The notes: a model not told the origin generated them from the letters alone. A DNA stretch of 64,000 nucleotides from Escherichia phage AV116 (OR352946.1), one strand, 5' to 3'. Positions 479 through 40,540 are shown, numbered from the stretch's first letter. A program made the numbers and translations.

Positions 479-480
479 TA

Positions 481-1443
481 TTATTTCCAAGTCAGTTCGC
501 AGGTCAGTTGAAGAAGCATATACATAACATGTAATTCAATATTACTTGCTAATCCATGAAACTTATTGTTTTCGCCTGCAATTTCATAAAGCGAAATAAT
601 ACTTTTACCAGGTGCAACTTGGTCATAACATTCTGAAACTAATTTATCGATGAACCATGAATAATCTGCGGCATATTTTGGAGCTAATGCACGAAGTTGT
701 TTGATATCTTTATTTTTCATTGCTTCTATGACATCATCTACCGTGCCACGGTCATTAGTTACGATAGACAAAATACCCGCATCAAGAACACCTTTAGACG
801 AGTACTGGTCTAATTGACCAATTGTACGACGAAAGTCCGGGAAGTTCTTTTTAACCAGAGCTGCAACAACTTTCATATCAGCGATTTCGATATTTTCGTT
901 CTTACAGATTTCAACCATACGATGAATCATTTTCTTCATCATCGAGATTTTATCTTCTTCGGTTGGACGTCCGAATTCGATAACTCGACAACGACTACGT
1001 AACGGTTCGATAATTCCATCGATGTTGTTAGCAGTAATAATAATAGAACAGTTACTAGAGAATTCTTCCATAAACGTACGAAGGTGACGTTGTGATTCGG
1101 CGAGGCCACTACGGTCAAATTCATCGATAACGATAACTTTCGGCTTGCCTTCCATTGAGACTGAACGAGCGAATGCAGTTAATGGACCACGCACAAAATC
1201 AATCTTACAATCAGAACCGTTGACGAACATCATTTCGGCATTAATATCATTACATAATGCTTTTGCTACGGTTGTTTTACCTGTACCAGGAGAAGGAGAG
1301 TGTAAAATAATATGAGGAAGTTTTCCTTTAGATACTAAAGACTTGAATGTTTCATGGTCATACGCAGGCAGAATACATTCGTCAATGGAAGAAGGACGAT
1401 ATTTCTGTTCTAGAATGTGTTCTTTGGAATTGATAGTAATCAT
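481..1443 (-). CDS. 44: clamp loader ATPase subunit gp44
   Basis: 320 aa; Walker [11 protein letters not shown], Walker [12 protein letters not shown] motif; close to remembered T4 gp44. Confidence 0.95.
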
Positions 1444-1518
1444 GTAATTTTCCTCATTATCATTAAACTGGAGGATTTCTCCTCCATAATCGTATCACAA
1501 TAAACGTAAAGCTTTGAC

Positions 1519-2205
1519 TTAGAAGTCGTGAGTAGAATCGGCTTCCATCGCAATAACATAACTTACTTGAGAGCTTTCAAACTTGGCTGCAACTTTATCA
1601 CCAGCTCCCCACAACATTACTTTATAGTTACCTGGCTGGATTTTCATATTAGCCATATTGATTACGAAGTTAAAGTTGTTAGAACCATCATAATCGGTAA
1701 GAGTCAAAGAATACTTAGGACGAGTTAGTCCTGAATCTTCAACTTTATTATAGCCATTGATAACAATTTTACCATCTTTATTTGTAATAGCAATTGTATC
1801 AATCTGAAGACCACGTGAAACTCGAAGCAATTGTTGAAGGTCTTCAGCTTTAATTTCAGTAATCACAGAAGCTACTGGGAATTGAATTGGCTTATTAGGA
1901 AAAACAATTGTGCTCTTGTCAGCGGCAGGCCAATAAACTGTGGAACGTGTATCTGCAATTTTAATATTGCCATCAGTGTGCATTGAAATTTCAGCATCAT
2001 CAGACACTAGACTCAAAATGCTTAAGAAGCTATTCAAATCATAAAGTGCTACGTCAAAATCAATTTCATCAGAGATATTTGCTTCCGCATAAGTGGTGCC
2101 ATTAACTGCACGAGTCATAATAAATTTACCTTGACTCAGCAGAATGCCAGAGTTAATAGAAGCGAAGTTTTTCAGAATATTTACGGTTTCACGGCTAAGT
2201 TTCAT
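1519..2205 (-). CDS. 45: sliding clamp gp45
   Basis: 228 aa, same length as T4 gp45; synteny 45-44-62. Confidence 0.9.
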   Translation of the reverse strand: MKLSRETVNILKNFASINSGILLSQGKFIMTRAVNGTTYAEANISDEIDFDVALYDLNSFLSILSLVSDDAEISMHTDGNIKIADTRSTVYWPAADKSTIVFPNKPIQFPVASVITEIKAEDLQQLLRVSRGLQIDTIAITNKDGKIVINGYNKVEDSGLTRPKYSLTLTDYDGSNNFNFVINMANMKIQPGNYKVMLWGAGDKVAAKFESSQVSYVIAMEADSTHDF

Positions 2206-3101
2206 TTAGGTTTCCTATTAGCATAATAATTTGTCCAAGTCCGGATAGCACCTTGGTATGATTCATCATTAAAACCATGCTGAATTGCATGTTTTCTAAA
2301 TGTAATATAACTTGGTTTTCCTAAAGCAATCCACAATTCCTTTAATTTTTGTTCATGAAATATCCATGTACCTCTAGCTTTAGATTTTCTGAATTTATCC
2401 TTAAATTCTTTGGTTGCATTTCTTTTCGAAGCTGCGATAGAGGCCTTTGCTCTATTTTCAGGTTTAGACCAATACAATGTTTTAGATATTTTTATTTTAT
2501 CTTTAACATTAGGAGAATTCATTATATCTTTAAATTTTAAAGCAAAATCTCTATCGTTAAACATTTTTTTAGAACGAATAGAAACTTTCTCTCTTCGTTC
2601 TTTGGTCCAATATGTTTTTTGAAATTCTCTAATTGCGTTTAAATGATTCTCCGACAATTTGCAATTTTTTCTAACACCGACGTAATCTTCGTTTATTTCG
2701 TTTTTAGAAAGTTTTACTATTTTGCCTGTTTTTAAATTTTTATACGGTGCATATCCTTTAGCTGATATTCTAGACTTCTCGTTAGCATAAGCCTTATTAA
2801 AATATTTTTCATTTGAAACGGCTTTAACATTGAGTTGGAATAGTCTTTCTATTCTTCTAGGGTCTAATGTGGTTTCGCCTAAAATTTTTACAGAATATTC
2901 GCCTTGGTCTATTAATCTGTTATATAAAGGAGAATACGAGGAATTAACACTACCGGTATATATTTTACCGGTAGAATCTTCAATAATATCCTTTCCATTA
3001 AAATGACACGAAACTTTAGAACCTATATAATAACACGGGTATTCATTTTTAATCTCACGATTATAAAAGGTTATAAGATATATTAAATTCATAATTATCA
3101 A
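2202..3101 (-). CDS. GIY-YIG-like homing endonuclease with NUMOD3-like DNA-binding repeats (Seg-like), paralog 1
   Basis: N-terminal LIYLITFYNR...YYIGSK (degenerate GIY..YIG); lysine-rich C-terminal half with repeated K-x-K-I-S-type motifs; paralogous to 6954..7757 and 14083..14904; inserted between 45 and rpbA. Confidence 0.55.
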   Translation of the reverse strand: MIIMNLIYLITFYNREIKNEYPCYYIGSKVSCHFNGKDIIEDSTGKIYTGSVNSSYSPLYNRLIDQGEYSVKILGETTLDPRRIERLFQLNVKAVSNEKYFNKAYANEKSRISAKGYAPYKNLKTGKIVKLSKNEINEDYVGVRKNCKLSENHLNAIREFQKTYWTKERREKVSIRSKKMFNDRDFALKFKDIMNSPNVKDKIKISKTLYWSKPENRAKASIAASKRNATKEFKDKFRKSKARGTWIFHEQKLKELWIALGKPSYITFRKHAIQHGFNDESYQGAIRTWTNYYANRKPK

Positions 3102-3514
3102 GCAACAACCATCTGCTTTTTAATAGCTTCAGGCAGTGATTCAATATATTCTGGAATTTTAGAAGCAACAATTTCGCCAGCTGCAATTAGTTGTTCGTCG
3201 GCATCAACACAGTAAAAATCTTCAAGGCGTTCAGAACCGTCTTTATCAAGAACGATTTTAGCACCTGCTTCGATAGAATCTTTATAGTGCTTACGCATCA
3301 AATGAATCCACATATCAGACACATCGTTATCAATAAAACCATAAATCATAAAACGAGTTTCTTGTGGCAAAGATTGGAGTTTTTTAGCACTTGCGTCATC
3401 ACAATGCAGGACCCATGCTTTACGAACACGATTATGGTTATGTGGGTTAGCGTCAGTACGGATAGAAGTAACTTTCAGATCAGCAGCAGTGAAACCTTTA
3501 GCAGTAGTAAACAT
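3098..3514 (-). CDS. rpbA: RNA polymerase-binding protein RpbA homolog (by position)
   Basis: 138 aa ORF directly downstream of gene 45 as in T4; sequence identity not verifiable from memory. Confidence 0.5.
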   Translation of the reverse strand: MFTTAKGFTAADLKVTSIRTDANPHNHNRVRKAWVLHCDDASAKKLQSLPQETRFMIYGFIDNDVSDMWIHLMRKHYKDSIEAGAKIVLDKDGSERLEDFYCVDADEQLIAAGEIVASKIPEYIESLPEAIKKQMVVA

Positions 3515-3526
3515 ATTATTTCTCTC

Positions 3527-3715
3527 TTATTCGTAGAAGTCGGTAACTGTCCATGCGGAATTGCGATTAGACATTATTTTATTATACTCATCTTTAAAAG
3601 CAGATTTGAGCATTTGTTCAGTAACAATATGTTCTTCACCTGAAAACGTATTGGTCAAAACATATTTTTTAATTTCAGGGACAACGAGAAGATGTTGTCC
3701 AGTTGAATACTCCAT
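3527..3715 (-). CDS. 45.2: hypothetical protein, 45.2-like
   Basis: 62 aa from internal ATG at 3715 (MEYSTGQ...); position between 46 and rpbA. Confidence 0.5.
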   Translation of the reverse strand: MEYSTGQHLLVVPEIKKYVLTNTFSGEEHIVTEQMLKSAFKDEYNKIMSNRNSAWTVTDFYE

Positions 3716-3730
3716 GTTGTTCTCCATTTA

Positions 3731-3761
3731 ACACGATGTGGTCATTATAACCACATCGTGT
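3731..3761 (-). promoter_or_regulatory. perfect 12-bp stem hairpin between gene 46 and 45.2
   Basis: ACACGATGTGGT-cattata-ACCACATCGTGT inverted repeat in the intergenic spacer. Confidence 0.5.
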
Positions 3762-3769
3762 TAAAGCGT

Positions 3770-5458
3770 TTATGAAACAGTCATTACCGTAAATCGTCCA
3801 ACTTTGCTCATTTGAAGATGTTGTCCATAAGCTTGTGGGTCATGGTCTCTGTGACTAATTATAAACACGTTTGCATCGGTTAGAGAGTTAAGAATTGTTG
3901 AAATAGCTTTAATACCTTCAGAATCAGTCGCGGAATCCATGACTTCGTCCATAATTAATGTATTGATTCTAACACCAGAGACCTTTTCAGCAATATCTCG
4001 CCATGTAAACAACAACGCGATATCGATACGTGCTTTTTCACCTTGACTAAATGAAGCATAACTGAACTCTTCACGACCACGTGATTTTATAGATTCATTG
4101 AATTCTTCGTCAATAGAAAACACGTAATCAGCTTCCATGATTTTAAGATAATGGTTAATCTGCTTGTTGAACAGAGGCACATATTTTTTAATGATAGCAC
4201 CTTTAATACCAGAATCTTTTAACATATCTGTGATAATACCACGATGGTATTTTTCAAGAACGATATCCGATTTTGTTTTAATGATTTTATCAAGTTCTTT
4301 TTGAAGCAAAGCTATCTCATCGGCATGGTCGATAAATTCCGCTGAGGCTTGTTCTATTGCAGCTTTAACTTTCTTAGCTTTATCAATAGTGGCAATCATT
4401 GCTTGTTTCTTGGTACGAATATCAGATGCAAGGTCCTGTTTAGTCTTAACATTAGCTCTATATTCGTCCACTAGGACACTCAGATTATCTCTGTGGCAGG
4501 TAAGTTGCTCGAATGAGTGATTACATTCATGAAGCTTATCGGTAATCTTAGAGACAATAGGATCACCCTGGTGCAACTGTGATGCGCAAGTAGGACATGT
4601 ACCGCCATCATGATACATCTTAATAACTTTGTTGTATGAGTCAATTTTAGATTTAATCAAGAATGCTTCTTGTCCTATCTTGTTGAATGCCTCAGTAGGG
4701 TCTTCATCAAGAACGATATTAAGTAGTCGCTCATTAGCTTCTTCGATTTCTGCTTTTAATGAACGAGCTTCTTTAGCTAGGTCGTCATACATATTCTGTA
4801 GACGCGCTACATTATCACCAGATAATTTCTTTTGACGTTCGATATTCTCGTTATAAATCTTAATTTGTTGGATAACACCATCTTTCTTGGCATCGAGAAC
4901 TTGTCCCTGGGAATTAAGTTCTCGAACTTGAGACTTATTGATTTTATCCATTTCAGCGAGTGTGCCGACTTCTAAAAGGTCTTCGACAAGTTTTCTACGA
5001 GCAGGGGTGCTAAGAGCCATGAAAGGGGTATACCCTGCCGTCCCAAGCACAACGATCTGTTTAAAAGACGCGTATGACATTCCGATGCTACGTTCAAATT
5101 CTTCTTGGAAGTCACGACTGCTGGCAGATTCATCAAGACGAACACCGTCAACGGAGATTTCGAAAATATTGGGCTTTTGGCCACGTTTAATGAAGTATTT
5201 TTTATCATCGAATTCCATCCAAAGCTCAACTAAGAGCTCTTTCTTGTTCGTGCTATTAATGATTTGTCCTTTCTTAACATCACGAAATGGTTTACCGAAA
5301 AGTCCGAAAGTAATGGCTTCTAACATCGTAGATTTACCACCGCCATTTTTACCAGTGATTAATGTCTTTTGAACTTTATCTAATTGGATATCAATAGGAT
5401 TCCCACCTACCGACATGATGTTTTGATAACGAACACGATTTAATTTAAATGATTTCAT
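3770..5458 (-). CDS. 46: recombination endonuclease subunit gp46 (SbcC/Rad50-like ATPase)
   Basis: 562 aa; Walker A GKNGGGKST near N-terminus, CxxC zinc hook (CPTCAS), C-terminal D-loop; length matches T4 gp46. Confidence 0.9.
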   Translation of the reverse strand: MKSFKLNRVRYQNIMSVGGNPIDIQLDKVQKTLITGKNGGGKSTMLEAITFGLFGKPFRDVKKGQIINSTNKKELLVELWMEFDDKKYFIKRGQKPNIFEISVDGVRLDESASSRDFQEEFERSIGMSYASFKQIVVLGTAGYTPFMALSTPARRKLVEDLLEVGTLAEMDKINKSQVRELNSQGQVLDAKKDGVIQQIKIYNENIERQKKLSGDNVARLQNMYDDLAKEARSLKAEIEEANERLLNIVLDEDPTEAFNKIGQEAFLIKSKIDSYNKVIKMYHDGGTCPTCASQLHQGDPIVSKITDKLHECNHSFEQLTCHRDNLSVLVDEYRANVKTKQDLASDIRTKKQAMIATIDKAKKVKAAIEQASAEFIDHADEIALLQKELDKIIKTKSDIVLEKYHRGIITDMLKDSGIKGAIIKKYVPLFNKQINHYLKIMEADYVFSIDEEFNESIKSRGREEFSYASFSQGEKARIDIALLFTWRDIAEKVSGVRINTLIMDEVMDSATDSEGIKAISTILNSLTDANVFIISHRDHDPQAYGQHLQMSKVGRFTVMTVS

Positions 5459-5703
5459 ATGTATTCTCTTCGAATGAAGTCCTCTACATATTTTAACATG
5501 TCATCCCTATCAGCAAAATATTCATCTAGTTCTGCATACATAACAACACCTGGTGCATACTCACAGGTAACATACATTGTTCCAAAGAAACGAGGAGTTG
5601 ATTCCTCGTAATTCTCAGTCCATTCAACGATACCAATATAACCGTCACCAATACTAAATTCATGACGATGGATTTCATAATCAGTCTTCGTCATTATACG
5701 CAT
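5455..5703 (-). CDS. hypothetical protein (46.1-like)
   Basis: ATGA overlap with gp46 start; ATG at 5703 (track start at 5709 is TTG). Confidence 0.45.
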   Translation of the reverse strand: MRIMTKTDYEIHRHEFSIGDGYIGIVEWTENYEESTPRFFGTMYVTCEYAPGVVMYAELDEYFADRDDMLKYVEDFIRREYI

Positions 5704-5938
5704 CCTCAATACACGCTTCAGCCATTTTAAGAATAGAGCCAGGAGTATCGTTGTCCATTATATTAAAGCTAAATTCAATAGCCCAGTCGGTGCAGACATG
5801 AACTGCTTTAACTTCATTGCCTTCAACGCGTAATGGCTCAATCCAATACTTGATAGTGTTCTCGAATCCATCGTCATCTTTAACGTCCATTTCAACTTCA
5901 AGCCTGAGTCCAGCATTGTTAAATTCATCTAAAGTCAT
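5681..5938 (-). CDS. hypothetical acidic protein (46.2-like)
   Basis: 85 aa; ATGA overlap with gp47 stop. Confidence 0.45.
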   Translation of the reverse strand: MTLDEFNNAGLRLEVEMDVKDDDGFENTIKYWIEPLRVEGNEVKAVHVCTDWAIEFSFNIMDNDTPGSILKMAEACIEDAYNDED

Positions 5939-6954
5939 TGTGTTGCCTCAATATAAAGTTCGTTGGAATATTTGACCAGCGCTTCTCTGTCTTCATCTGA
6001 GATATCTGGAATCGCGTCAATATATTCTTTAATGATATCTTGAAGTGATTTAATCTCGATTTCCTGGTCGTCATCAGATTCAACACTGTTATCAACTTTA
6101 GAAACCATACGAAGAGAGTGAACTACTTTTTCAAGTTCAGATTCAAACTTAGTCAACTCTGAATCAATTTCTGATACTATAACACGTACGGCTAGATTAG
6201 TATAATCAGAATAATTGATTTTGCCTTTAAATGGATAAGTGATTCGTCGATGCCATGTTGTTTCATTAGGAATAAATTCCATACGTTCAACATCAGTGTC
6301 AAATACCCAGAATCCGCGCGGGTCGTTCTCATCACCTGCAGTAAGGGTCCATGGTGTCCCAATATATTTGACGTTAGCAGCTTCAGAGATTGTGTGGAAG
6401 TGGCCGGACCAGACTTGTTTATAGGTCTTTAAGAAATCAGGTTCAAGCCCATGAGACTTCATTCCTTTATAGAAATAGAAGCCATTTAATTCCCAGTGCC
6501 CAACACAATACGCTGCAGAAGAAGTCTTGATGTGCTCTAAGATTTCACCTGTATTTTCTTCACACATCCATGGAATCAAATCAATCAAGCACCCATCAAA
6601 ATCTACTGTAGTTGGCTTATCATAAATTATTACGTTTTTACGATGGCTCAATAATTCTTGAACAGTGTTAGGATATAAGGTTGTTTTATAAAAGAGATCA
6701 TGATTCCCAAGTATTGTATGGACTGTTATACCAGCGGCTTCCACCAAATCAAACATTTCACGCGTGAATTCCATACAACGTTGTGTGGTGTGGGCTCTGA
6801 CATCAAATGTATCACCATATTGAATCCATGTTGTTATTCCATTTGCGACGGAATAGTCGATCATTTGTCTGAAACCGTCACGTTGTATAGCTTGAATCCA
6901 ATCGTCGTCTTTTTTGACGCCTAGATGCAAATCGCCTATATTAAGTATTTTCAT
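5935..6954 (-). CDS. 47: recombination endonuclease subunit gp47 (Mre11/SbcD-like phosphoesterase)
   Basis: 339 aa from ATG at 6954; phosphoesterase motifs GDLHLG, GNHD, GHxH. Confidence 0.9.
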   Translation of the reverse strand: MKILNIGDLHLGVKKDDDWIQAIQRDGFRQMIDYSVANGITTWIQYGDTFDVRAHTTQRCMEFTREMFDLVEAAGITVHTILGNHDLFYKTTLYPNTVQELLSHRKNVIIYDKPTTVDFDGCLIDLIPWMCEENTGEILEHIKTSSAAYCVGHWELNGFYFYKGMKSHGLEPDFLKTYKQVWSGHFHTISEAANVKYIGTPWTLTAGDENDPRGFWVFDTDVERMEFIPNETTWHRRITYPFKGKINYSDYTNLAVRVIVSEIDSELTKFESELEKVVHSLRMVSKVDNSVESDDDQEIEIKSLQDIIKEYIDAIPDISDEDREALVKYSNELYIEATQ

Positions 6955-7757
6955 CACATACCTTTAAATTTGGAGTAAATTATATTGTGGTACGATATAT
7001 CAGGAAACCCTTTATCGACCGCAATTTTTCTAAACTTATTAGGACTTATTTTACCACACTCCATCCATAATGCAAACAACTCGTCAAAATGCTCATATGC
7101 TGGACCTCGACGAGCTTTTGACACAGCAGCACTTATGCGAGCCTTTTTCTCAGAATCAAGGTTTTTAAGAGAATTACTTATTTTATTTTTTTGCTCTTCT
7201 GAATTGAAGGTGCCTTTTTCCCAGCCTAAAGGTTGGCTTCCTTCATGGAACATTTTTCTTGAAGTTCCATTGGTATACCATATTTTACCTTTATTGTGCC
7301 CTGATGCTTTATATTTTGGTGAGCGTCCTTTTATAAATCCTTCAGGTATAGTAGGAGCAAATGTTTGTTCAAGGGTTTCTGGGTTATACGAATGTATGTT
7401 ATTTTTGGCGTTATGAGACCCATATAATGGGTGATTTTTACCAGAAACATCACGCCCAAAGAAACCAGTTGGTGATGCCAAAGACATATTCATATACAAA
7501 GGATTTTTATGAGCTTGAACTCTAATTTGATAGTCCTTTTCCACCTTTAAAGCTTCTTCTCGTGTTGGATGTTCGCTCAAAATACAAGAATCAAACAACG
7601 TAGGATTTTCTAAAAGTTCTTTGTTATAAATTTTACGATAGGCTTTAGATAGAATAGTACCATGATACCCGTTTAAATGTTTTTCTAAGCTAGTCGAACC
7701 TATGTAAAAAGGTGGTAGCTTATCTCCAGAATAAATTGTCAAATAGACTATAAACAT
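6954..7757 (-). CDS. GIY-YIG homing endonuclease-like protein with NUMOD3-like repeats, paralog 2
   Basis: Start at ATG 7757 with AAGGAG SD; FIVYLTIY...FYIGST, conserved Glu/Asn region (SCILSEHPTREEALKVEKDY...HKNPLYMN) resembling I-TevI catalytic domain; GKNHPLYGSHNAKN and K-x-K-I-S repeats. Confidence 0.6.
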   Translation of the reverse strand: MFIVYLTIYSGDKLPPFYIGSTSLEKHLNGYHGTILSKAYRKIYNKELLENPTLFDSCILSEHPTREEALKVEKDYQIRVQAHKNPLYMNMSLASPTGFFGRDVSGKNHPLYGSHNAKNNIHSYNPETLEQTFAPTIPEGFIKGRSPKYKASGHNKGKIWYTNGTSRKMFHEGSQPLGWEKGTFNSEEQKNKISNSLKNLDSEKKARISAAVSKARRGPAYEHFDELFALWMECGKISPNKFRKIAVDKGFPDISYHNIIYSKFKGM

Positions 7758-7781
7758 ATATTTCTCCTTTGATTTAAGGAG

Positions 7782-7811
7782 ATTATAACACGCCTTTAAT
7801 GAAGCGTAAAC
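7782..7811 (-). promoter_or_regulatory. T4-type early promoter-like element (GTTTAC-N18-TATAAT) upstream of GIY-YIG gene
   Basis: minus-strand reading TTGTTTACGCTTCATTAAAGGCGTGTTATAAT. Confidence 0.45.
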
Positions 7812-7835
7812 AAAAAAAGGAAGCACTAGGCTTCC
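7811..7835 (-). terminator. rho-independent terminator-like hairpin
   Basis: GGAAGC-loop-GCTTCC stem followed by U-run on minus-strand RNA. Confidence 0.5.
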
Positions 7836-7902
7836 TTTTGATATCGCCTAAGGCTTATAGGTCCTTAGAAATCTGGATGTTCATCTTCAACAAAGCTAGT
7901 AT

Positions 7903-8118
7903 TCATCGCTGCCACCATTTTTTAAGTTGATGTGAATCTACCCATACCTTCGCTACAGGCTCAATATTAAAAATACCATCGGACGTACGTCCAATCATTT
8001 TGTATTCGGTTTCAGATTGCTTGATACAAATATCACCATAAGAGCGAAGTCTAAAAGCGGCTCCTACTAGAAGCCGTTTAAACTTTGTTTGAACTAGCGC
8101 CATTAATGATGTCCTCAA
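7903..8118 (-). CDS. hypothetical protein
   Basis: 71 aa ORF, co-oriented; start uncertain. Confidence 0.35.
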   Translation of the reverse strand: MRTSLMALVQTKFKRLLVGAAFRLRSYGDICIKQSETEYKMIGRTSDGIFNIEPVAKVWVDSHQLKKWWQR

Positions 8119-8401
8119 TAGCCTGACGAGTAGTAACCCACTGGATTTTAATTAACTTGTCATTATATGGTTGTCTTAGAATATCCCGAGATTTCTTAAT
8201 AGCATATTCGTAAGCTTCGAAGTTGTTTTGAATTGCTGCTTCTTGAGCATGAGCATAAAGACGGTTTAGTTCAAAACGATTCTTTTTAAGAATCTTTTCG
8301 GATTTTTTACGTGCTTCAGCTTCATTTTTCTTTTGGATTTCTTGTAGCATTTTAGCTACTGCATCTTCTGCTTCTTTATTTTCAATAATCTCGGTAGTCA
8401 T
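8078..8401 (-). CDS. hypothetical protein
   Basis: 107 aa co-oriented ORF. Confidence 0.45.
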   Translation of the reverse strand: MTTEIIENKEAEDAVAKMLQEIQKKNEAEARKKSEKILKKNRFELNRLYAHAQEAAIQNNFEAYEYAIKKSRDILRQPYNDKLIKIQWVTTRQAIEDIINGASSNKV

Positions 8402-8402
8402 A

Positions 8403-8612
8403 TTATCTCATTAAATTAAAATAAAAACGTCCGTCCTCTTCAATACAGAACTCATACTCAACCGGAGTCCCATTTATCGAAAATAACACGTCATGTGGGT
8501 TCAAAGGGTCGATGTCAAAATTAATTTTAAATTCACGACCCAACAGTTTTACCAAATAAGGGATTGCTTCGTCAAAAGGTTCTTCTAAGTAGTTAGAGAT
8601 GTCAATTGTCAT
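8403..8612 (-). CDS. hypothetical protein
   Basis: ORF downstream of gene 55; ATG at 8612 or 8618 overlapping the gp55 stop. Confidence 0.4.
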
Positions 8613-9177
8613 CCTCATATAAAAAATCCAAACTAGGCGAATCGCTAACAACTTCCTTCTTTTCAGCCCCAGGAGCTTTATAAGCGGATTCTTCATAATG
8701 CGTCATTTTATCGTAGATGTCTTGAATAAACGTTTCATCTACCAACGCTACCATATCATCGTCATGACTGTCGTAGACATTATGAACGAAGTAACTATAT
8801 TTCTTTGCAACTTCCTTACGTTCTTTTTTGATACGTTGGACAAAAGCATTAAAACAAGCTCGAGTTATGTATGCATGTGGGTTATTGTACTTAGTTTCGT
8901 CGAAATTATGAAGTCCCTTAATAGAGGCTTCAATCCCATCTGCAATCATCTCCTGCTTCCAAGACTGGGTATATCCTGAAAAGTTGAAACGTTTGGACAG
9001 GCCTTCGGCGATAAGCATAATTGCTAAACCGATGGTATCATTCTGACGAATAATTTTGTTTGGGTCTTTATTATTTAAGAGCTCCTTTTTCCACTCGATT
9101 ATAGCGGCGAGAAGCTCTTTATTATTCACATAGTTATTTTTAGGTTTTTGTTCAGTCATAAGTACCTCTTGGCTCAA
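8602..9177 (-). CDS. 55: late-transcription sigma factor gp55
   Basis: 191 aa; near-identical over long stretches to remembered T4 gp55 ([52 protein letters not shown]). Confidence 0.95.
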
Positions 9178-9314
9178 TTCATAGGTCTATTATATCATAA
9201 TATTTAGAGACCTATCTTAAAGCACGAGATACTATAAAAGATACATAACTTTTATAAAGTTGTCGACTTAAAATTCACCAATCTTTTCTTCAGTTATACT
9301 GATTCGAGTTAATT

Positions 9315-9542
9315 TCATTCTAGTTCCTTTGCTGCTTCAAGAGCAGCATCCAGCGAATCAAATTGGTCAACGAAATCAATATTTAACGCATCGTCAACCG
9401 TAGCATATAACCACCATTGTTTGAATTCGTATTCAAGAATAAATCCAGGACCTTCAATCTGAGGAAGACCTAGGCTATTTGTACCAACTTCGTAACCAGC
9501 TAGACGCAGGTCATTAATCAAAGTTTCTGTTAATACGCTCAT
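9315..9542 (-). CDS. hypothetical acidic protein
   Basis: 75 aa co-oriented ORF. Confidence 0.45.
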   Translation of the reverse strand: MSVLTETLINDLRLAGYEVGTNSLGLPQIEGPGFILEYEFKQWWLYATVDDALNIDFVDQFDSLDAALEAAKELE

Positions 9543-9871
9543 TTTACCGCCTTAACAATTTTCAGGTCAACGAATTTTTTCTTACGTTGATTTTTCATAC
9601 GACGGATAGTCTTTTCAGAGATTTCATGTTTCTGATAAGCTTTAGATTCGACACCAAATGCAGCAACGTCAAATTCAGAAAGAATGTATTGCACTAGAAT
9701 TTCACGAATAGAGTTACGTCCAATTTTCTGCTCATGTTTTTGCATGATTTCATAGAGACGATATTCCCAGGCGTCAAGAACTTGAGGAGTAACAATATTG
9801 CCGGATTCCAGAAGAGCAACAACTTTATCGAAAGCGAAAGAATTAACTACGTTTTTGATTTTAGTAGACAT
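9539..9871 (-). CDS. hypothetical protein
   Basis: ATG at 9871 (MSTKIKN...) with GAGGAAA SD; early promoter module immediately upstream. Confidence 0.5.
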   Translation of the reverse strand: MSTKIKNVVNSFAFDKVVALLESGNIVTPQVLDAWEYRLYEIMQKHEQKIGRNSIREILVQYILSEFDVAAFGVESKAYQKHEISEKTIRRMKNQRKKKFVDLKIVKAVK

Positions 9872-9890
9872 ATTATTTTCCTCGGTTATT

Positions 9891-9938
9891 TTATTATCCA
9901 ATGAGAGCATTATACTCTGCTCTCAAGAGTTTGTAAAT
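9891..9938 (-). repeat. 48-nt exact repeat copy A (early promoter module)
   Basis: ttattatccaatgagagcattatactctgctctcaagagtttgtaaat; identical copy at 37698..37745; contains TTTACA-N17-TATAAT on minus strand. Confidence 0.85.
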
Positions 9939-9940
9939 CG

Positions 9941-10153
9941 TTATCCGAACTTTTTAGCGCCTTTCCAGCCTTCGTACATAACTGCACAAGTCAGTAGCAC
10001 AGCGTGTTGGCATTCTTTGTATTTGTAAATCCAGAACCAGCGTAAAAAGTCTTCATCCTCAACACCGTTGAGTTTCATGTTGGCGAAGAATTCAGCTCGT
10101 TCTTCGCGAAGTTTTTGAGATAACATAGATTCAGGATTCATTTTGTGTTCCAC
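9941..10153 (-). CDS. hypothetical protein
   Basis: 70 aa co-oriented ORF. Confidence 0.4.
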   Translation of the reverse strand: MEHKMNPESMLSQKLREERAEFFANMKLNGVEDEDFLRWFWIYKYKECQHAVLLTCAVMYEGWKGAKKFG

Positions 10154-10272
10154 GCCCCGTTTTCATCGATGAACTTAATCCAGTCATTTACAGACCATTT
10201 AGTTGTATCACCCTTTGGATTAACATTTAAAGTATATAATCCCTGCTTAAAAAGCATTCGTTTGATATTCAT
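10138..10272 (-). CDS. hypothetical small protein
   Basis: ATG at 10272 with GAGGAAA SD; track ORF 10138..10365 shortened to avoid overlap. Confidence 0.35.
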   Translation of the reverse strand: MNIKRMLFKQGLYTLNVNPKGDTTKWSVNDWIKFIDENGAWNTK

Positions 10273-10279
10273 AATTTCC

Positions 10280-10573
10280 TCAACTGTAACGATAACATTC
10301 GTTAGCTTTACGTTTGGCTTCAGTATGAGAAGTATTATAATCATACTCTTCTTTACTGTAAACATCTTTTTTCAACTTACGAACTTCTTTGCGGAGTTGT
10401 CGATTCATTTCGTTCTTGACTTCAGAATCAACGCCTTTCATACGTTTCCATTTATCTGAGCGGAAGATGTTTTCAACCATGTCTTTGTGGCTAACACCGT
10501 CAGGAGCTTTACGTTTACCAAAATAGTCGTAATCACGAACTTTCAAATCTTTACGACGATACGTTTTACCCAT
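10280..10573 (-). CDS. hypothetical basic protein
   Basis: ATG at 10573 (MGKTYRRKD...), lysine/arginine rich. Confidence 0.4.
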   Translation of the reverse strand: MGKTYRRKDLKVRDYDYFGKRKAPDGVSHKDMVENIFRSDKWKRMKGVDSEVKNEMNRQLRKEVRKLKKDVYSKEEYDYNTSHTEAKRKANECYRYS

Positions 10574-10580
10574 AAGTACC

Positions 10581-10829
10581 TCAGAGGTTGATTGATACAA
10601 TGCGTTTGATAAAATTCACTTCACTTACTGAAAGGTCTTTAAGACCGATTGATTCTAAACGCTGAATAAAAGTCAACATTGGGATATAGTCCCATTGTGT
10701 TTTAGTCGTTTGATAAGTACGGACGCCATTAGCAATTTCAACATGCAAATCGGAAATGGTAATGAATACCGGTCGCTCGTCATTAACTTTAAGGGTTAGA
10801 ACAACTTTCTTTGAATCTAAACTAATCAC
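10581..10829 (-). CDS. hypothetical protein
   Basis: 82 aa ORF. Confidence 0.4.
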   Translation of the reverse strand: MISLDSKKVVLTLKVNDERPVFITISDLHVEIANGVRTYQTTKTQWDYIPMLTFIQRLESIGLKDLSVSEVNFIKRIVSINL

Positions 10830-11008
10830 GGCTTAATTTCCTTCGCAATTGAACAGAAGATACCACGGTCACAAAGCATTTCACCAATTTCTGGATATTT
10901 GATTGAACGGTACCAAACATCCAGGCTTGAAACTCTGGTTATCCGTACTGCATTACCGTTGACAGAATAGTACTGGTCAACCTTAATTTCTTTATCTTCA
11001 ATTGTCAT
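10826..11008 (-). CDS. hypothetical small protein
   Basis: ATG at 11008 (MTIEDKEIK...) with GAGGAAA SD. Confidence 0.4.
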   Translation of the reverse strand: MTIEDKEIKVDQYYSVNGNAVRITRVSSLDVWYRSIKYPEIGEMLCDRGIFCSIAKEIKP

Positions 11009-11173
11009 TTTATTTTCCTCTATAGTAGATGGTTTAATCTTAACACATCTATCGAGGATGTAAACTGTTTTATGAAAATATTTTTGATTTGAGAGGGGCA
11101 CAAGGAGATAGTGAAGTGAAGATTCCAATGGATTATATTAGAAATGAGATAAAGAAGACCAGGCGGCACCTGG

Positions 11174-11482
11174 TCAATCTTCTATGATATCAGAGTCGTA
11201 TCCTAATGAAATCAAGGACTTTTTAAACTCTGCAATATTCTTTTGTTTCTTATCATTTAAAAATATGACAGGATAACGAATATTAAGTGAAGTGAATCCT
11301 GCACGTTTAGCAAGAGATACGATTAAAGGACGGTCATATTCAATCTTACCATTATTAGTGAGGACTTTATAAAATGTATAAGGAGCATTGAGCTCCTTTA
11401 AAAGTTTTGTAACAGTATAACATCCTGGACAACGTCCAACTTCTTCAGGGATGCCATAAATTTCAATCTTGTTGTGTTCCAC
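11174..11482 (-). CDS. nrdH: glutaredoxin-like protein NrdH
   Basis: 102 aa; CPGC redox motif; synteny with nrdG/nrdD. Confidence 0.8.
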   Translation of the reverse strand: MEHNKIEIYGIPEEVGRCPGCYTVTKLLKELNAPYTFYKVLTNNGKIEYDRPLIVSLAKRAGFTSLNIRYPVIFLNDKKQKNIAEFKKSLISLGYDSDIIED

Positions 11483-11484
11483 AA

Positions 11485-11697
11485 TTATTCCTTGCCAAGA
11501 ACAGAATTCAGTTTATTAGTAATTTTGTCCAAACGTTCATTGAATTCGCTGGAGGATAAACCCTTTTCCGGAGAAATTAAACTAATCACGAAAAATACAC
11601 CAGTAAAAGGAATAAGAAAAATAGCTCCAACTGCCATAAACAAAAAGAACGTTACAGTTGTAAGAAAATCAGCTAAACCTTTACGAAATTTGTACAT
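11485..11697 (-). CDS. small membrane protein
   Basis: 70 aa, two hydrophobic segments. Confidence 0.45.
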   Translation of the reverse strand: MYKFRKGLADFLTTVTFFLFMAVGAIFLIPFTGVFFVISLISPEKGLSSSEFNERLDKITNKLNSVLGKE

Positions 11698-11807
11698 ATT
11701 TACCCTTAATTAACTAAGAATTGATAATCATTAAACTATATTGCGAATAAAATTCTGGACCAAAACGAAAAATCATATCATTTATAGTATCCATAATGTA
11801 ATTCAAT

Positions 11808-12278
11808 TTAATCATGTTTCCACACCCCATCGGTATTTGACCAAAGTCGCTGATTATCTGATCCTCGCCACAGTTTTTTGGTCGGAAGATTTTTCTCATA
11901 CTTCCCATCAATAATAACATCAACATATTTAAGCATTTCTAGTTGTTTAATATCTTCAAACTTATATCCTGTCCACAACCAAATGCTTTTATTGGGATAA
12001 AGATTTTTTACTGTTTGAACAATGCAATGAATAACATCTCGGTTATCAGGATAGAGAGGGTCACCTCCGGTTATAGTTAATCCTTCTATATAATCATTAT
12101 TCAAACATTCAATTAATTGTTCTAGTGTTTCACCAGTGAATGGAATACCATTTCTAGCATTCCATGTTGATTTATTATAACACCCTTCGCATTTATGCAA
12201 ACAACCTGTAACGAAAAGAACGACCCTACAACCAGGGCCATTCACAAAATCGCAAGGATAAAATCTATCATAATTCAT
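11808..12278 (-). CDS. nrdG: anaerobic ribonucleotide reductase activating protein NrdG (radical SAM)
   Basis: 156 aa; cysteine cluster GCLHKCEGCYN; immediately upstream of nrdD. Confidence 0.9.
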   Translation of the reverse strand: MNYDRFYPCDFVNGPGCRVVLFVTGCLHKCEGCYNKSTWNARNGIPFTGETLEQLIECLNNDYIEGLTITGGDPLYPDNRDVIHCIVQTVKNLYPNKSIWLWTGYKFEDIKQLEMLKYVDVIIDGKYEKNLPTKKLWRGSDNQRLWSNTDGVWKHD

Positions 12279-14092
12279 TGGTGTTTAACCCTATGCATGA
12301 TTTCTTTATTTTTACCGAGATTAAATCCGCGTTCGTTCGGATTTCCCAAATAGCCGCATGTTCTTCTTATGGTGTTCATCTTTTTAGGATCAGTTTCTCC
12401 GCAAACTGAACAAACAAATCCATTTTCGGTAGGAGTCATTTCATGAGTACTTCCACATGTAAAACATTTATCTACTGGCATATTAACACCAAAATAATCT
12501 AAATGTTGTGCAGCATAATCCCAGACAGCCTCAAGTCCTTTTAAGTTATTTTTCATATCAGGAAGTTCAACATAAGAAATGTGACCACCTGTCGCAATGA
12601 AATGATACGGCGCTTCACGAGAAATCTTTTCAAACGGAGTAGTATTTTCTTCTACTGAAACGTGGAAACTGTTAGTGTACCAGCCTTTATCGGTAACATC
12701 TTTTACACTTCCATATTTTTCTGTATCAAGTTTACAGAAGCGATAACAAAGGTTTTCAGCAGGAGTAGAATACAAACTAAAAGCAAAACCAGTTCTTTCA
12801 GTCCACTGTTTAAGATGAGCATTCATTTTAGTTAAAATTTCTTGTCCAATATCACGACCGACAAGAATATTCAATTCATGAATACCGATGTATCCTAAAG
12901 ACACTGAACTTCTACCGTTTTTAAATAGCTCAATTATATCGTCATCAGGTTTAAGACGAACCCCGAATGCACCTTCTTGGTAAAGAATAGGAGCAACAGT
13001 CGCTTTAACTCCTTTTAAGGAACTAATTCTACACATCAAAGCTTCAAAACACAGGTCCATTCGTTCATTGAATAATTCAACAAATTTCTGTTCATTGAAC
13101 TGTGTTCCAATATAAGAATCTAATGCGATACGAGGAAGATTCAGTGTTACAACGCCGAGATTATTACGACCGTCAAGAATTTCATTTCCAGTTGAATCTT
13201 TCCATACGCTCAAGAAACTACGGCAACCCATCGGAGAAACTGGAACTGAAGAACCGGTAATAGCTTTATTATTCTTAACTGAAATAATGTCAGGATACAT
13301 TCTTTTGCTTGCACATTCTAACGCAAGTTGTTTAATATCATAGTTTGGATCATCTTTATAAAGATTAACACCTTCTTCAAAAAACATAACAAGCTTAGGG
13401 AAAATAGGAGTTATTCCATCACGTCCAAGGCCTTTAATGCGGTTTTTAAGAATTGCCTTCTGAATCATTCGTTCAGTCCAGTCAGTTCCCGTACCAAATG
13501 TAATTGTCACAAAAGGCGTTTGTCCGTTTGAACTAAAGAGAGTGTTTACTTCATATTCATAAGCTTGGAATGCATCGTATACGTCTTTTTCTGTTTTAGA
13601 TTGAGCATAATTCAGAATGTCTGGTATTTGCCATTTTTCTGCATCTTCAACATGTTTAGCGTATGTGCGTTTAACATAAGGAGAAAGAACTTTATCGACA
13701 TTCGCAAATGTAGTTCCGCCATACTGGTGTGAAGCAACTTGTGCAGTAATTTGTGCCATAATTGCAGTAGCAACGCCAATAGATTTAGGCGTTTCAATTT
13801 GAGCATTGCCTAATTTAAATCCATTCTCAAGCATTCCTTTTAAATCTACTAAACAGCAATTAGTAAAAGGCAATGATATACTATAATCTAAATCGTGAAA
13901 ATGAATTAATCCGACATTATGAGCATTTACAATATGGCTCGGAAGAATACTACAAGCGATATGTTTAGAAACAATACCGGCCATTAAATCTCTTTTTGTT
14001 GGAAAGACACGAGAATCTTTGTTGGCATTTTCGGTATTTAATTCTTTATCTTTATTTGAAATAAAATTTAAAACATCTTTCTCTAAAGACAT
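12275..14092 (-). CDS. nrdD: anaerobic ribonucleoside-triphosphate reductase NrdD
   Basis: 605 aa; C-terminal glycyl-radical motif RTCGYLG and zinc ribbon CFTCG...CSVCG; uninterrupted ORF (no intron apparent). Confidence 0.95.
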   Translation of the reverse strand: MSLEKDVLNFISNKDKELNTENANKDSRVFPTKRDLMAGIVSKHIACSILPSHIVNAHNVGLIHFHDLDYSISLPFTNCCLVDLKGMLENGFKLGNAQIETPKSIGVATAIMAQITAQVASHQYGGTTFANVDKVLSPYVKRTYAKHVEDAEKWQIPDILNYAQSKTEKDVYDAFQAYEYEVNTLFSSNGQTPFVTITFGTGTDWTERMIQKAILKNRIKGLGRDGITPIFPKLVMFFEEGVNLYKDDPNYDIKQLALECASKRMYPDIISVKNNKAITGSSVPVSPMGCRSFLSVWKDSTGNEILDGRNNLGVVTLNLPRIALDSYIGTQFNEQKFVELFNERMDLCFEALMCRISSLKGVKATVAPILYQEGAFGVRLKPDDDIIELFKNGRSSVSLGYIGIHELNILVGRDIGQEILTKMNAHLKQWTERTGFAFSLYSTPAENLCYRFCKLDTEKYGSVKDVTDKGWYTNSFHVSVEENTTPFEKISREAPYHFIATGGHISYVELPDMKNNLKGLEAVWDYAAQHLDYFGVNMPVDKCFTCGSTHEMTPTENGFVCSVCGETDPKKMNTIRRTCGYLGNPNERGFNLGKNKEIMHRVKHQ

Positions 14093-14904
14093 AATTCTAA
14101 TTTATCCTTTTGAAATTCTTCGTCTAAATATGGGTTCCAACCCATTTTAAACCTTTTGATGAAATTATCAATTCTAAATTTCGGTAAATTTAACTCCGCA
14201 AAAATAGATGATTTACTTTTAAAATCTGGACCTAAATAATCATATAAAATTTCTGCGTATTTTAACCATAATATATAAGTACCAGATTTAATTGCGTTCG
14301 GAGTTTTCCAAGGTTTTACACCATACATCGGATTTCCACTTCCTTTATGCCTGATAGAAGATGAAATTCCAATTTTAATTTTAGCTTCCTTTGTATGCGA
14401 AAATCCACGATGCGGATTTTCTTTCCAGTATTTTTTAGCAGCTTCTGATATTTTCTTTCTGGCTAAATTAGTATGATGCTTTCCATAAAATCCATGATTT
14501 TTGCCTTTATTACGATTTCTTTTAATCATGGTTATTGATTGCTTTTCTCTAGTTTCTTTAGAAGGAGAAATACCATATGTCGTAAATTTGCCATCAGCAT
14601 ATGCTAAATTAAAATACTCTTTATTCCATACATCTTTTTCTATATTCTTTTGAAATTCAGCTTCAATGCTAGTTATTTGTTCATCTCCGACTAATTGAAA
14701 ATATAATATTTCAACTTTCGGCGTTTCTTTCAATAAGGCTTTTTGAAATTCGGAAGATGACGAAGACGAATAATAAAATTTACCATTTTTATCAATAATA
14801 TTCGTTCCATCAAAAGTGCAATTGGTTTTACTTCCAATGTAATAATATGGTGGGGTTTTAGCATTAATTCTATTAATAAATGATAGTTTATATACTACAT
14901 TCAT
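14083..14904 (-). CDS. GIY-YIG-like homing endonuclease with NUMOD3-like repeat, paralog 3
   Basis: VVYKLSFINR...YYYIGSK; GKNHGFYGKHHTNLARKKISEA; free-standing between nrdD and 49. Confidence 0.55.
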   Translation of the reverse strand: MNVVYKLSFINRINAKTPPYYYIGSKTNCTFDGTNIIDKNGKFYYSSSSSSEFQKALLKETPKVEILYFQLVGDEQITSIEAEFQKNIEKDVWNKEYFNLAYADGKFTTYGISPSKETREKQSITMIKRNRNKGKNHGFYGKHHTNLARKKISEAAKKYWKENPHRGFSHTKEAKIKIGISSSIRHKGSGNPMYGVKPWKTPNAIKSGTYILWLKYAEILYDYLGPDFKSKSSIFAELNLPKFRIDNFIKRFKMGWNPYLDEEFQKDKLELCL

Positions 14905-15374
14905 TTTAAACTCTTTCTAAGCTGCTTTTTGAATGAAGCTATTAATTGTGTTTTAGTATCAGATTCAGTATATTCAAATCCTCTTTGAAGCATCTCAGCC
15001 ATCATTTCCTCTTTACCTAGTCTTGAGAACTCTTTAGTTTTGTCTGGAACAAAATTAGGATGGATATTATTATCAGAATAATCTTGTTTCAAATAAGCAA
15101 GAAGAGCTTCAAGCCATTCTAAGTAGTCAACGTTTTGACCTTTCAAACCGGAACGGTTGAACTTATGCTTCATTTGACCTTCTGCTGCGTTGCACAGATT
15201 ACAGAGTAATCCACGAACTCTACCGGCTTTTGGCCCGTTTAATTCATGGTCGTGGTCAAGATGGTTACCTTGAACATCAGGGTCTAATTCACGGTGGCAA
15301 ATAGGACACTTACCGTTCTGTGCATCATAAAATTTTTGTTTTTCTTCTTTATATTTTGCGCCTGATAATAACAT
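14901..15374 (-). CDS. 49: endonuclease VII (Holliday junction resolvase) gp49
   Basis: 157 aa; Zn-binding CPIC...CNLC and HLDHDHE motif; same length as T4 gp49. Confidence 0.9.
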   Translation of the reverse strand: MLLSGAKYKEEKQKFYDAQNGKCPICHRELDPDVQGNHLDHDHELNGPKAGRVRGLLCNLCNAAEGQMKHKFNRSGLKGQNVDYLEWLEALLAYLKQDYSDNNIHPNFVPDKTKEFSRLGKEEMMAEMLQRGFEYTESDTKTQLIASFKKQLRKSLK

Positions 15375-15403
15375 GATAAACCCTTACCTTAAATAGATAA
15401 GGG

Positions 15404-15411
15404 TATTTATA
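15404..15411 (-). promoter_or_regulatory. late promoter TATAAATA upstream of gene 49
   Basis: exact TATAAATA on minus strand about 30 nt upstream of the ATG at 15374. Confidence 0.5.
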
Positions 15412-15413
15412 AT

Positions 15414-15584
15414 TTAGTAAACGTTATAAAAGTTACGATGAGAACGTTTAGCTTTGCGAAGCTGACGTTTAGTTGGTCGAACCGTAAATGGTCGTCCGGA
15501 GAAAAAATTCGGATCGGTTTTAATAAGCAAATACCAATCATGCTTGCCATTTTTTAATAAACGGTACAATAATTTAACTTGCAT
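15414..15584 (-). CDS. hypothetical small basic protein
   Basis: ORF with internal ATG start. Confidence 0.35.
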   Translation of the reverse strand: MQVKLLYRLLKNGKHDWYLLIKTDPNFFSGRPFTVRPTKRQLRKAKRSHRNFYNVY

Positions 15585-15712
15585 AATAATCTCTTCCCAT
15601 TTCCAAATCAATCATATCGTTTACTGTAGGTTCATCATAACACGTTTCTTCGTCGTTGTAAACTGTTTCGACGTCTGGCTCGACAGTTTCCCATCGAGCC
15701 GAATACCATGGT

Positions 15713-39681: not shown

Positions 39682-39758
<77 letters not shown>

Positions 39759-39761
39759 TAA

Positions 39762-40427
39762 TTAAAATTTCATTTTTCGACCTTTAAACCATCCTTCTGG
39801 AATTGGGTCAGTTTTCTTAATACGTTTAGAAACTTTTTCATCTAATGAATGAATCCACATCATACCAAATTGGGAATTCTTTTCGCCCTGTTGATGTTTA
39901 TTTCTGGCGTGAGATTCTTTCATTTTATTAATAGTTTCAAGAGTATGGGTCTTACCCAAGAAAGATTTAGTATTTAAAAATTTCTCTCTATACTTAGGAT
40001 TATCCCAAAGCTGTTTAAACCTTTCTGAACCCATTTTACGATATTTTTCTTTAAGGTCTGGGTCGTTCTCAAATCTGGTTTTAAAAGCAGCAGCCCCTTT
40101 TAAGGAAGCTTCTTTCTTTTTATCCAAATATTCTTTAGTGTTTAAATGGTCCCAACCACCTTCACCACCTAATTTCAAATTATAAACATCAGGGCGCTTT
40201 AAAAACTCTTCAGTCACAATATTCTTTTCTGACTCAAACATAGAGGTTTTATCGTCAAAGAACTCTAATATTTCTTTAGAGAAATTTTCTATACCATACT
40301 TGTCTTGGGCTCTTTTTAATAATTTACCAGAACCCATATATCCATCATCTAAATTTTCGGTAGAATGGGCGCCTATATAGATTTTATTATTAATTTTATT
40401 TGTTATTTTATAAGTGTAATGGAACAT
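39762..40427 (-). CDS. segB: GIY-YIG homing endonuclease SegB-like
   Basis: canonical N-terminal GIY-YIG (HYTYKITNKINNKIYIGAH...GYMGSG); embedded between two tRNA genes as T4 segB. Confidence 0.75.
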   Translation of the reverse strand: MFHYTYKITNKINNKIYIGAHSTENLDDGYMGSGKLLKRAQDKYGIENFSKEILEFFDDKTSMFESEKNIVTEEFLKRPDVYNLKLGGEGGWDHLNTKEYLDKKKEASLKGAAAFKTRFENDPDLKEKYRKMGSERFKQLWDNPKYREKFLNTKSFLGKTHTLETINKMKESHARNKHQQGEKNSQFGMMWIHSLDEKVSKRIKKTDPIPEGWFKGRKMKF

Positions 40428-40468: not shown

Positions 40469-40540
40469 TGGCCCTGGCTGGTTTCGATCCAGCTACCTAT
40501 CAGTTATGAGCTGACAGCTCTCCCATTGAGCTACAGGGCC
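40469..40540 (-). tRNA. tRNA with CAT anticodon (Ile-lysidine type or Met)
   Basis: hand-folded: acceptor GGCCCTG/CAGGGCC, D-arm GCTC-AATGGGA-GAGC, anticodon loop CTCATAA, T-arm GCTGG-ATCGAAA-CCAGC; CCA not encoded. Confidence 0.8.

Follow-up and report, generated by a model that had tools for sequence, protein, structure and literature searches.

Three probable free-standing homing endonuclease genes of the GIY-YIG superfamily beside genes 45, 47 and nrdD of Escherichia phage AV116

Escherichia phage AV116 (OR352946.1) carries three open reading frames (ORF1, ORF2 and ORF3) at separate points beside conserved genes in the 64,000-nucleotide (nt) stretch of its DNA that was analysed here, referred to as the window. 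We consider it very probable that all three are free-standing homing endonuclease genes of the GIY-YIG superfamily, belonging to the branch of T4 SegG and to a sister branch, with the core Y...YIGS(K)...Y.GS...E...N, and that they represent three lineages acquired separately. The observations behind this are homology, fold, sporadic occupancy of the insertion sites, diverged tracts linked to the genes on one side only, and transfer across genera. An earlier note on this DNA had proposed homing endonuclease genes of the GIY-YIG type, free-standing and inserted at three separate points beside conserved genes, and this proposal stood. Endonuclease genes lying between conserved replication, recombination and nucleotide-metabolism genes are ordinary biology in T-even phages, a group famous for them. 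No paper analysing these particular three genes was found in the literature searched.

Bases 1-16000 of the window were 99.1% identical to AV109, a Mosigvirus (Escherichia phage, Tevenvirinae), and 95-97% identical to many other Mosigviruses. The region is transcribed wholly from the minus strand in the order 49, ORF3, nrdD, nrdG ... 55 ... a-gt.4, an a-gt.3-like ORF, ORF2, 47, 46.2, 46.1, 46, 45.2, rpbA, ORF1, 45 and 44. All three ORFs are intact on this strand, as had been claimed, and their contexts (rpbA/ORF1/45, a-gt.3-like ORF/ORF2/47 and 49/ORF3/nrdD) agree with AV109 and with PhAPEC2. ORF1 (2202..3092, minus strand, 296 amino acids, aa) lies between rpbA and 45; it starts 5 nt past the stop of rpbA, and at the other end its stop codon overlaps the gene 45 start (ATGA). 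Its start had been placed at a TTG at 3101, but the ATG at 3092 is the likely one because homologs begin MNLIY and the AV109 annotation is 2202..3092. The ends proposed for the other two genes were borne out. The stop of ORF2 (6954..7757, minus strand, 267 aa) overlaps the ATG of gene 47 by 1 nt, and ORF3 (14083..14904, minus strand, 273 aa) overlaps the stop of 49 at its start (ATGA) and the start of nrdD by 10 nt at its end. GC content was 0.28-0.30 in ORF1 and ORF3 compared to 0.35-0.40 in the flanks; ORF2 was not GC-poor. In AV109, ORF1 and ORF2 are annotated as "hypothetical protein". GenBank labels across these genes and their relatives are hypothetical, "homing endonuclease" or "SegG homing endonuclease", and relatives of ORF2 are called "HNH endonuclease". 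Both ORF1 and ORF3 fall in phrog_7504 ("homing endonuclease") of PHROGs.

ORF1 and ORF3 shared 31% identity over 192 aa (E 2e-13), limited to the N-terminus, and ORF1 and ORF2 shared 26% over their full length (E 2e-9), including a common C-terminal block of approximately 50 aa. The pairwise similarity of ORF2 and ORF3 was not significant. When family profiles were compared, the ORF1/ORF3 family aligned to the ORF2 family with an hhalign probability of 99.4% (E 3e-21, 170 columns). Searched by tblastn against phage genomes, the N-termini of ORF1 and ORF3 matched T4 SegG at 38-40% identity, with ORF3 at 39.8% over aa 1-126 (E 2e-17) and ORF1 at E 2e-8. Alignment also matched the C-terminal block of ORF3, GW.P..D.E ending ELC, to that of SegG; ORF3 is thus a full-length SegG homolog with an inserted NUMOD3 region. 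In ORF1, a SegG-like GIY-YIG N-terminus (aa 1-~105) is followed by a helical repeat region and by a helical module at the C-terminus that it has in common with ORF2. ORF2 consists of a GIY-YIG domain (aa 1-~95), a weak NUMOD3-like linker and that C-terminal helical module. A word-indexed homolog search with ORF1 returned 5 proteins, and its N-terminal profile returned 17. The description of the three genes as paralogous holds only at the level of the superfamily; they are not close paralogs, since their closer relatives are in other phages and their C-terminal modules have been shuffled. A recent duplication within the genome was considered and rejected, with identities of only 26-31% and closer relatives of each gene elsewhere.

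The GIY/YIG half-motifs read IY (residue 5) and YYIG (22-24) in ORF1, VY and YYIG in ORF3, and VY (5) and FYIG (18-20) in ORF2. Their Tyr and Gly were invariant in the family alignments except for Y5 of the ORF2 family, which was found in at least 90% of members. The N-terminal block described as common to the three is YYIGSK in ORF1 and ORF3, but FYIGST in ORF2. The metal-binding Glu and the downstream Asn of I-TevI (E75, N90) correspond to E82/N99 in ORF1 and E73/N90 in ORF2, with equivalents in ORF3. Among 48 diverse members sampled from the ORF2 family, Y18-I-G-S, G-Y31-x-G33, R66 (near-invariant), E73 and N90 were conserved, Pfam GIY-YIG was found in 9 and NUMOD3 in 30. The predicted structures agreed with the GIY-YIG fold, a three-stranded sheet plus helices, and the I-TevI catalytic domain was the best structural match for the models of both ORF1 and ORF2. 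For the AF2 model of ORF2 (pLDDT 82), the top three Foldseek matches in the PDB were to I-TevI (1LN0/1MK0; probability 0.95-0.99). Single-sequence PDB searches with ORF2 and ORF3 gave nothing relevant, and the ORF2-family profile matched only the I-TevI NUMOD3-like linker in the PDB, weakly (E 0.077). Of the NUMOD3 repeats attributed to all three proteins, those of ORF3 were above the Pfam cutoff (PF07460, 29.6 bits vs 20.4, in two stretches), those of ORF2 were sub-threshold (15.8 bits), and none were detected by Pfam in ORF1 and its close homologs.

Occupancy of the sites was counted across the phage genome collection, with contiguous empty junctions counted for the ORF1 and ORF3 sites. The rpbA/45 site was empty in 142 records and filled with ORF1 at ≥95% identity in 9. 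The 49/nrdD site was empty in 355 records, including RB69, and filled with ORF3 at ≥90% identity in 49. Upstream of 47, ORF2 was found at ≥99% identity in 4 records, and approximately 82 more carried homologs of 60-80% identity. The genes are thus absent from most relatives, and orthologs at the same position in all relatives, which the earlier note had named as the finding contrary to mobility, were not what we saw. PhAPEC2 lacks all three genes, and JK42 and LF82-4 lack some of them. At the empty sites of PhAPEC2, 42 nt lie between rpbA and 45, and 49 overlaps nrdD; ahead of gene 47 come a-gt.2, a terminator and a promoter that resembles MotA-box middle promoters. For the ORF1 insertion, the right flank was determined by reading the junction by hand and by gene-anchored comparisons.

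ORF2 sits where PhAPEC2 has a-gt.2 and the terminator and promoter of 47. Window 7758..8071, compared with PhAPEC2 7105..7561, lacks a-gt.2 and the terminator and keeps a diverged a-gt.3-like ORF (7903..8118). Searched by blastn, window 7758..8071 had no match to PhAPEC2 at E<1e-10; the ORF2 cassette therefore appears to have replaced local sequence rather than simply interrupted it.

Compared with the Tequatrovirus G10400, the window was 76.6% identical in nt 1-350 of gene 49, 98.4% identical in ORF3 and 95.5% identical in nt 1-245 of nrdD. The DNA identity of ORF3 across two phage genera argues for recent spread. ORF3 and the nrdD tract, judged by these identities, spread horizontally between Mosigvirus and Tequatrovirus independently of the backbone; of the three genes, this comparison covered ORF3. 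G10400 also has an ORF1 homolog of 59% identity at the same rpbA/45 site.

Directly downstream of each ORF, the conserved gene begins with a diverged tract. In gene 45, codons 3-9 (2179..2199, minus strand) are rewritten, reading CTT AGC CGT GAA ACC GTA AAT in the window vs CTG TCT AAA GAT ACT ATC GCT in empty-site phages. This putative ORF1 target or immunity patch has 13 changes in 21 nt, including a TCT-to-AGC serine codon switch, within a diverged stretch of approximately 30 nt. It is identical in G2285, a close relative in which ORF1 is frameshifted, and the other allele is common to the empty-site phages PhAPEC2 and JK42. In gene 47, nt 1-~378 (6577..6954, minus strand), the candidate co-conversion or immunity tract of ORF2, were approximately 62% identical to empty-site Mosigviruses, after which identity rose to approximately 100%. 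This tract was found at ≥99% identity in exactly 4 records and at 60-80% in the other 751. LF82-4, whose ORF2-family homolog is diverged, shares this variant type, and its tract stops at the position where that of the window does. Likewise, nt 1-245 of nrdD (13848..14092, minus strand), the candidate co-conversion or immunity tract of ORF3, were 66% identical to PhAPEC2, followed by approximately 92-95% for the rest of the gene. Identity to the nrdD tract was ≥95% in 49 records, and none of the other 947 exceeded 90%. The window shares this variant with JK42 (both are ORF3 carriers) and not with PhAPEC2, LF82-4 or G2285. In the phages examined, the tracts thus segregated with the genes, and record counts for tract and gene were equal, at 49 and 49 for the nrdD tract and ORF3 and at 4 and 4 for the gene 47 tract and ORF2.

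The sharply bounded divergence was on the downstream side only, from the start codons. In the ~120-150 nt that end at the junction with ORF1 or ORF3, the upstream genes rpbA and 49 were 97-100% identical to PhAPEC2; ahead of ORF2, sequence was replaced instead. Differences within the tracts are amino-acid changes as well as silent ones. The tracts have the look of long-standing passengers that came from some donor lineage and may also confer self-immunity, because they include coding changes and because no high-identity gene 47 or nrdD tract occurs in the collection without its gene.

A further diverged patch lies in the 3' part of gene 46 (window 3839..3988, minus strand; gene nt 1471-1620), over the SbcC-like Walker B region. 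It is 69% identical to PhAPEC2 and 100% identical to G2285, and the last 69 nt of the gene are PhAPEC2-like. G2285 has a plus-strand homing endonuclease gene (phrog_655) between 45.2 and 46 (G2285 4295..5011), a position at which the window has none. The patch resembles what an endonuclease gene since lost, or a partial co-conversion, would leave behind.

Several points weigh against our assignment and against the role that we give to the tracts. Pfam GIY-YIG (PF01541) was sub-threshold for ORF2 (17.8 bits vs a cutoff of 22.6), ORF3 matched NUMOD3 only, and ORF1 matched no Pfam domain. The definition of the GIY-YIG family includes an Arg in the helix after YIG (PMC1564403), and the Arg at this usual position (I-TevI R27) is missing in all three ORFs. 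The match between tracts and genes rests on record counts and five inspected genomes. In addition, neighbouring DNA is co-inherited under ordinary recombination too, and the tracts are no proof of endonuclease-driven conversion.

T4 SegG bears on the first two of these points. It is listed as an active free-standing GIY-YIG endonuclease, inserted at 32/59 with gene 32 as its target (PMC2988022, Table 1). SegG itself had no Pfam match at E≤1. The missing match for ORF1 is therefore uninformative, and the Pfam GIY-YIG model does not cover the SegG-like branch. The earlier note had suggested that ORF1 and ORF3, lacking the Arg and His, may be inactive, and that ORF2 retains an I-TevI-like and hence more canonical catalytic region. 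Neither suggestion held up: active SegG has the same YYIGSK...Y.SS core, and ORF2 is also without the canonical Arg and has the Y.GS motif common to the other two. An exhaustive profile search for the SegG-like family gave 140 clusters (50% identity) at E≤1e-30 and 1948 at E≤1e-3. Among 66 diverse relatives, Y5, Y22, G24, K26, Y45, the Ser of Y.GS and N99 were invariant, E82 was present in 65 and R12 in 53 (80%). ORF1, ORF3 and active SegG keep every invariant residue, plus E82 and R12. Judging from these alignments, the absence of the post-YIG Arg is a family trait and not decay.

Relocation of the Arg within the GIY-YIG superfamily has precedent in the literature (PMC2630997). Lys26 or Arg12 may substitute for it here; Arg12, considered as a relocated catalytic Arg, is only 80% conserved and is absent in P0124, a close ORF1 homolog. 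It is possible, and we offer this tentatively, that the SegG-like clade and its sister ORF2 clade form a distinct catalytic subclass of GIY-YIG nucleases in which the hallmark Arg is replaced by another arrangement, with each gene moving between phage genera in a fixed unit that includes a resistant allele of its own target. The replacement arrangement may consist of the invariant Lys after YIGS, the invariant Tyr-x-Gly-Ser and the partly conserved Arg12 from the first hairpin.

Other explanations were weighed for the proteins themselves. ORF1 and ORF3, or all three, could have lost the ability to home, either as relics without catalysis or as domesticated DNA-binding proteins. They lack the canonical Arg and His that follow YIG, and ORF1 has no Pfam match, both as expected of relics, and decay does occur in the lineage: ORF1 of G2285 is frameshifted into two overlapping ORFs (G2285 2702..3591) and is probably a pseudogene, which fits the usual decay phase of such elements. 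However, active T4 SegG has the same core and likewise no Pfam match, and the core residues are invariant (E82 in 65/66) and all kept in ORF1 and ORF3. Moreover, ORF1 homologs at 49-63% identity keep their full length, and ORF3 reaches 98.4% identity between genera in which gene 49 shows only 77%. We regard the relic explanation as unlikely. For ORF2, many GenBank records and its PHROG (phrog_10820) say HNH endonuclease, a label also carried by homologs in LF82-4, KPV15, PM2 and others, and its last ~80 aa are similar to the C-terminus of a mobE-annotated protein. That resemblance is limited to the DNA-binding end. No HNH Pfam match was found in ORF2 or in the 48 family members, compared to 9 of 48 for GIY-YIG; the family conserves the motif Y..YIGS..Y.GS..E..N, the best fold matches are to the I-TevI GIY-YIG domain, and the family profile matches the SegG-like family (99.4%). 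It would be very surprising if ORF2 were an HNH enzyme.

The tracts could also be ordinary mosaic recombination blocks with the endonuclease genes as passengers and not the cause. T-even genomes are mosaic, physical linkage alone would yield equal record counts, and other diverged patches lie without an adjacent endonuclease gene, the 3' end of gene 46 among them. However, each of the three tracts starts exactly at its endonuclease gene, always downstream, while the upstream genes are 97-100% identical up to the junction. The nrdD variant did not exceed 90% identity in any record beyond the 49. Even the gene 46 patch is 100% identical to that of G2285, which has an endonuclease gene beside it, so this patch also traces to such a gene. 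We consider mosaicism by itself improbable, slightly more so than catalytic decay.

We therefore return to the reading of the three ORFs as homing endonuclease genes. Their cleavage activity, cut-site positions and regulation are inferred by analogy with T4 SegG, SegF and SegB. During co-infection with a related phage lacking the gene, the enzyme would bind and cut the sensitive allele in the 5' part of the gene just downstream, which would be near codons 3-9 of 45, within the first ~375 nt of 47 or within the first ~245 nt of nrdD. The break would then be resected and repaired from the endonuclease-carrying genome. Repair would copy the endonuclease gene and the adjacent stretch, and the diverged stretch would shield the carrier from its own enzyme. 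In intronless homing, free-standing endonucleases cut away from their own gene and repair copies the gene and the intervening sequence (PMC2988022, section 7). For that reason, the far ends of the tracts are our best guesses for the cut sites, which would lie ~30, ~375 and ~245 nt into 45, 47 and nrdD, respectively.

Expression probably rides on host-gene transcripts; the start and stop junctions of ORF1 and ORF3 overlap or nearly abut their neighbours. For ORF2, an early-type promoter of its own and a hairpin covering the ribosome-binding site would come in addition. Upstream of ORF2 on the minus strand, sequence patterns suggest a terminator-like hairpin (7839-7815), a T4-early-like promoter (GTTTACG-17-TATAAT, 7811-7782) and a hairpin (7782-7763) predicted to pair with the AAGGAGA Shine-Dalgarno of ORF2. 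The last of these had a folding energy of -13.8 kcal/mol (z -3.9), and 0 of 200 shuffles folded as well. A transcript from the early-type promoter would begin within the left arm of the hairpin, and the ribosome-binding site would thereby be freed. This hairpin was not conserved upstream of the LF82-4 homolog and is specific to ORF2. RNA folds at the starts of ORF1 (z -0.06) and ORF3 (z -1.95) were not convincing. Within the 3' end of ORF2, approximately 95 nt before the gene 47 ATG, a pattern match to a sigma-70-like site (TTTGCA-17-TAAAAT with an upstream TG; 7048..7076, minus strand) may be a promoter for 47 embedded in the ORF2 coding region. Promoters inside endonuclease coding regions have been described for some T4 seg and mob insertions (PMC2988022).

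A pattern match to the T4 late-promoter consensus, TATAAATA, lies upstream of 49 (15404..15411, minus strand) and could drive a 49-ORF3-nrdD transcript. It is the only one near the three genes, with no late-promoter consensus immediately upstream of ORF1 or ORF2, and the count of this consensus across the window was not above chance. Window 15411..15424 corresponds to PhAPEC2 14390..14814, and the pin (Lon protease inhibitor) gene, located downstream of 49, is missing from the window. Near nrdH, a segment of ~320 nt with RB69ORF082c is also missing (window 11474..11495 vs PhAPEC2 10964..11286).

A perfect palindrome, AACACGATGTGG-TTATAATGA-CCACATCGTGTT, occupies the 45.2/46 spacer just upstream of gene 46 (window 3716..3769, minus strand), and PhAPEC2 has a shorter stem at the same position. 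The palindrome may form an RNA hairpin, or it may be a promoter whose loop holds TATAAT. The window has a fourth gene for a GIY-YIG endonuclease (39762..40427, minus strand), which was above the Pfam GIY-YIG threshold (25.7 bits) and belongs to phrog_314 (E 2e-49). It lies inside a tRNA cluster, flanked by tRNA-Arg (39682-39758) and tRNA-Met (40469-40540), the context of T4 segB. In a 2026 paper, SegB is reported to promote amplification of anti-defence loci in T6 (PMC13096335).

These results correct the annotation of ORF1 and ORF2, which are hypothetical in AV109, and of the ORF2 homologs widely labelled "HNH endonuclease". They predict three homing sites, at the 5' ends of 45, 47 and nrdD, that would explain local marker exclusion and mosaic boundaries in crosses of Mosigvirus and Tequatrovirus. 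For the SegG branch, which on present alignments is a large Arg-less variant of the GIY-YIG core, the absence of the textbook Arg or of a Pfam match is not evidence of inactivity. No new principle is involved; in T4, free-standing seg-type genes, cutting at a distance and co-conversion are all well established.

The insertion points of the three ORFs can be compared with those of known T4 elements. In T4, mobB (alpha-gt/alpha-gt.2), mobC (nrdG/nrdD) and I-TevII (in the nrdD intron) occupy the same hotspots around 47/alpha-gt and nrdD (PMC2988022, Table 1). However, mobB and mobC encode HNH enzymes, I-TevII is intron-borne, and the exact insertion points also differ. In G2285, nrdD (12675..15537) is split by a gene for a 256-aa phrog_314 endonuclease; the region is a dense hotspot for endonuclease genes, as this relative shows.

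I-TevI of the T4 td intron (PDB 1LN0, 1MK0, 1I3J) shares with the three ORFs the conserved Tyr of GIY, Tyr of YIG, Glu and Asn, and a NUMOD3-type linker like its own is matched in ORF3 and in part of the ORF2 family. The translational control described for T4 intron endonucleases resembles the logic proposed for the ORF2 hairpin (PMC2988022). In contrast, I-TevI is intron-encoded and the three genes are free-standing, its Arg27 and His31 have no equivalents at those positions in the three ORFs, SegG-like proteins have an extra hairpin of ~10 residues between YIGSK and Y.GS, and sequence identity is 13-21%.

T4 SegG (gene 32.1) differs from ORF1 and ORF3 in its insertion site, which is 59/32 and not 49/nrdD or rpbA/45, so the targets differ. 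ORF3 has an extra NUMOD3 insert (273 aa vs 210 aa for SegG), the helical and C-terminal region of ORF1 is unrelated, and identity is only 36-40%, with the activity of the two ORFs being a prediction. However, the N-terminal YYIGSK..Y.SS..E..YFN core and the C-terminal block of SegG are common to full-length ORF3, and the N-terminal domain is common to ORF1. The layout is also the same, with the cassette packed tightly among conserved genes, and the likeness would extend to co-conversion and to a cut site located tens to hundreds of nt inside the conserved neighbour.

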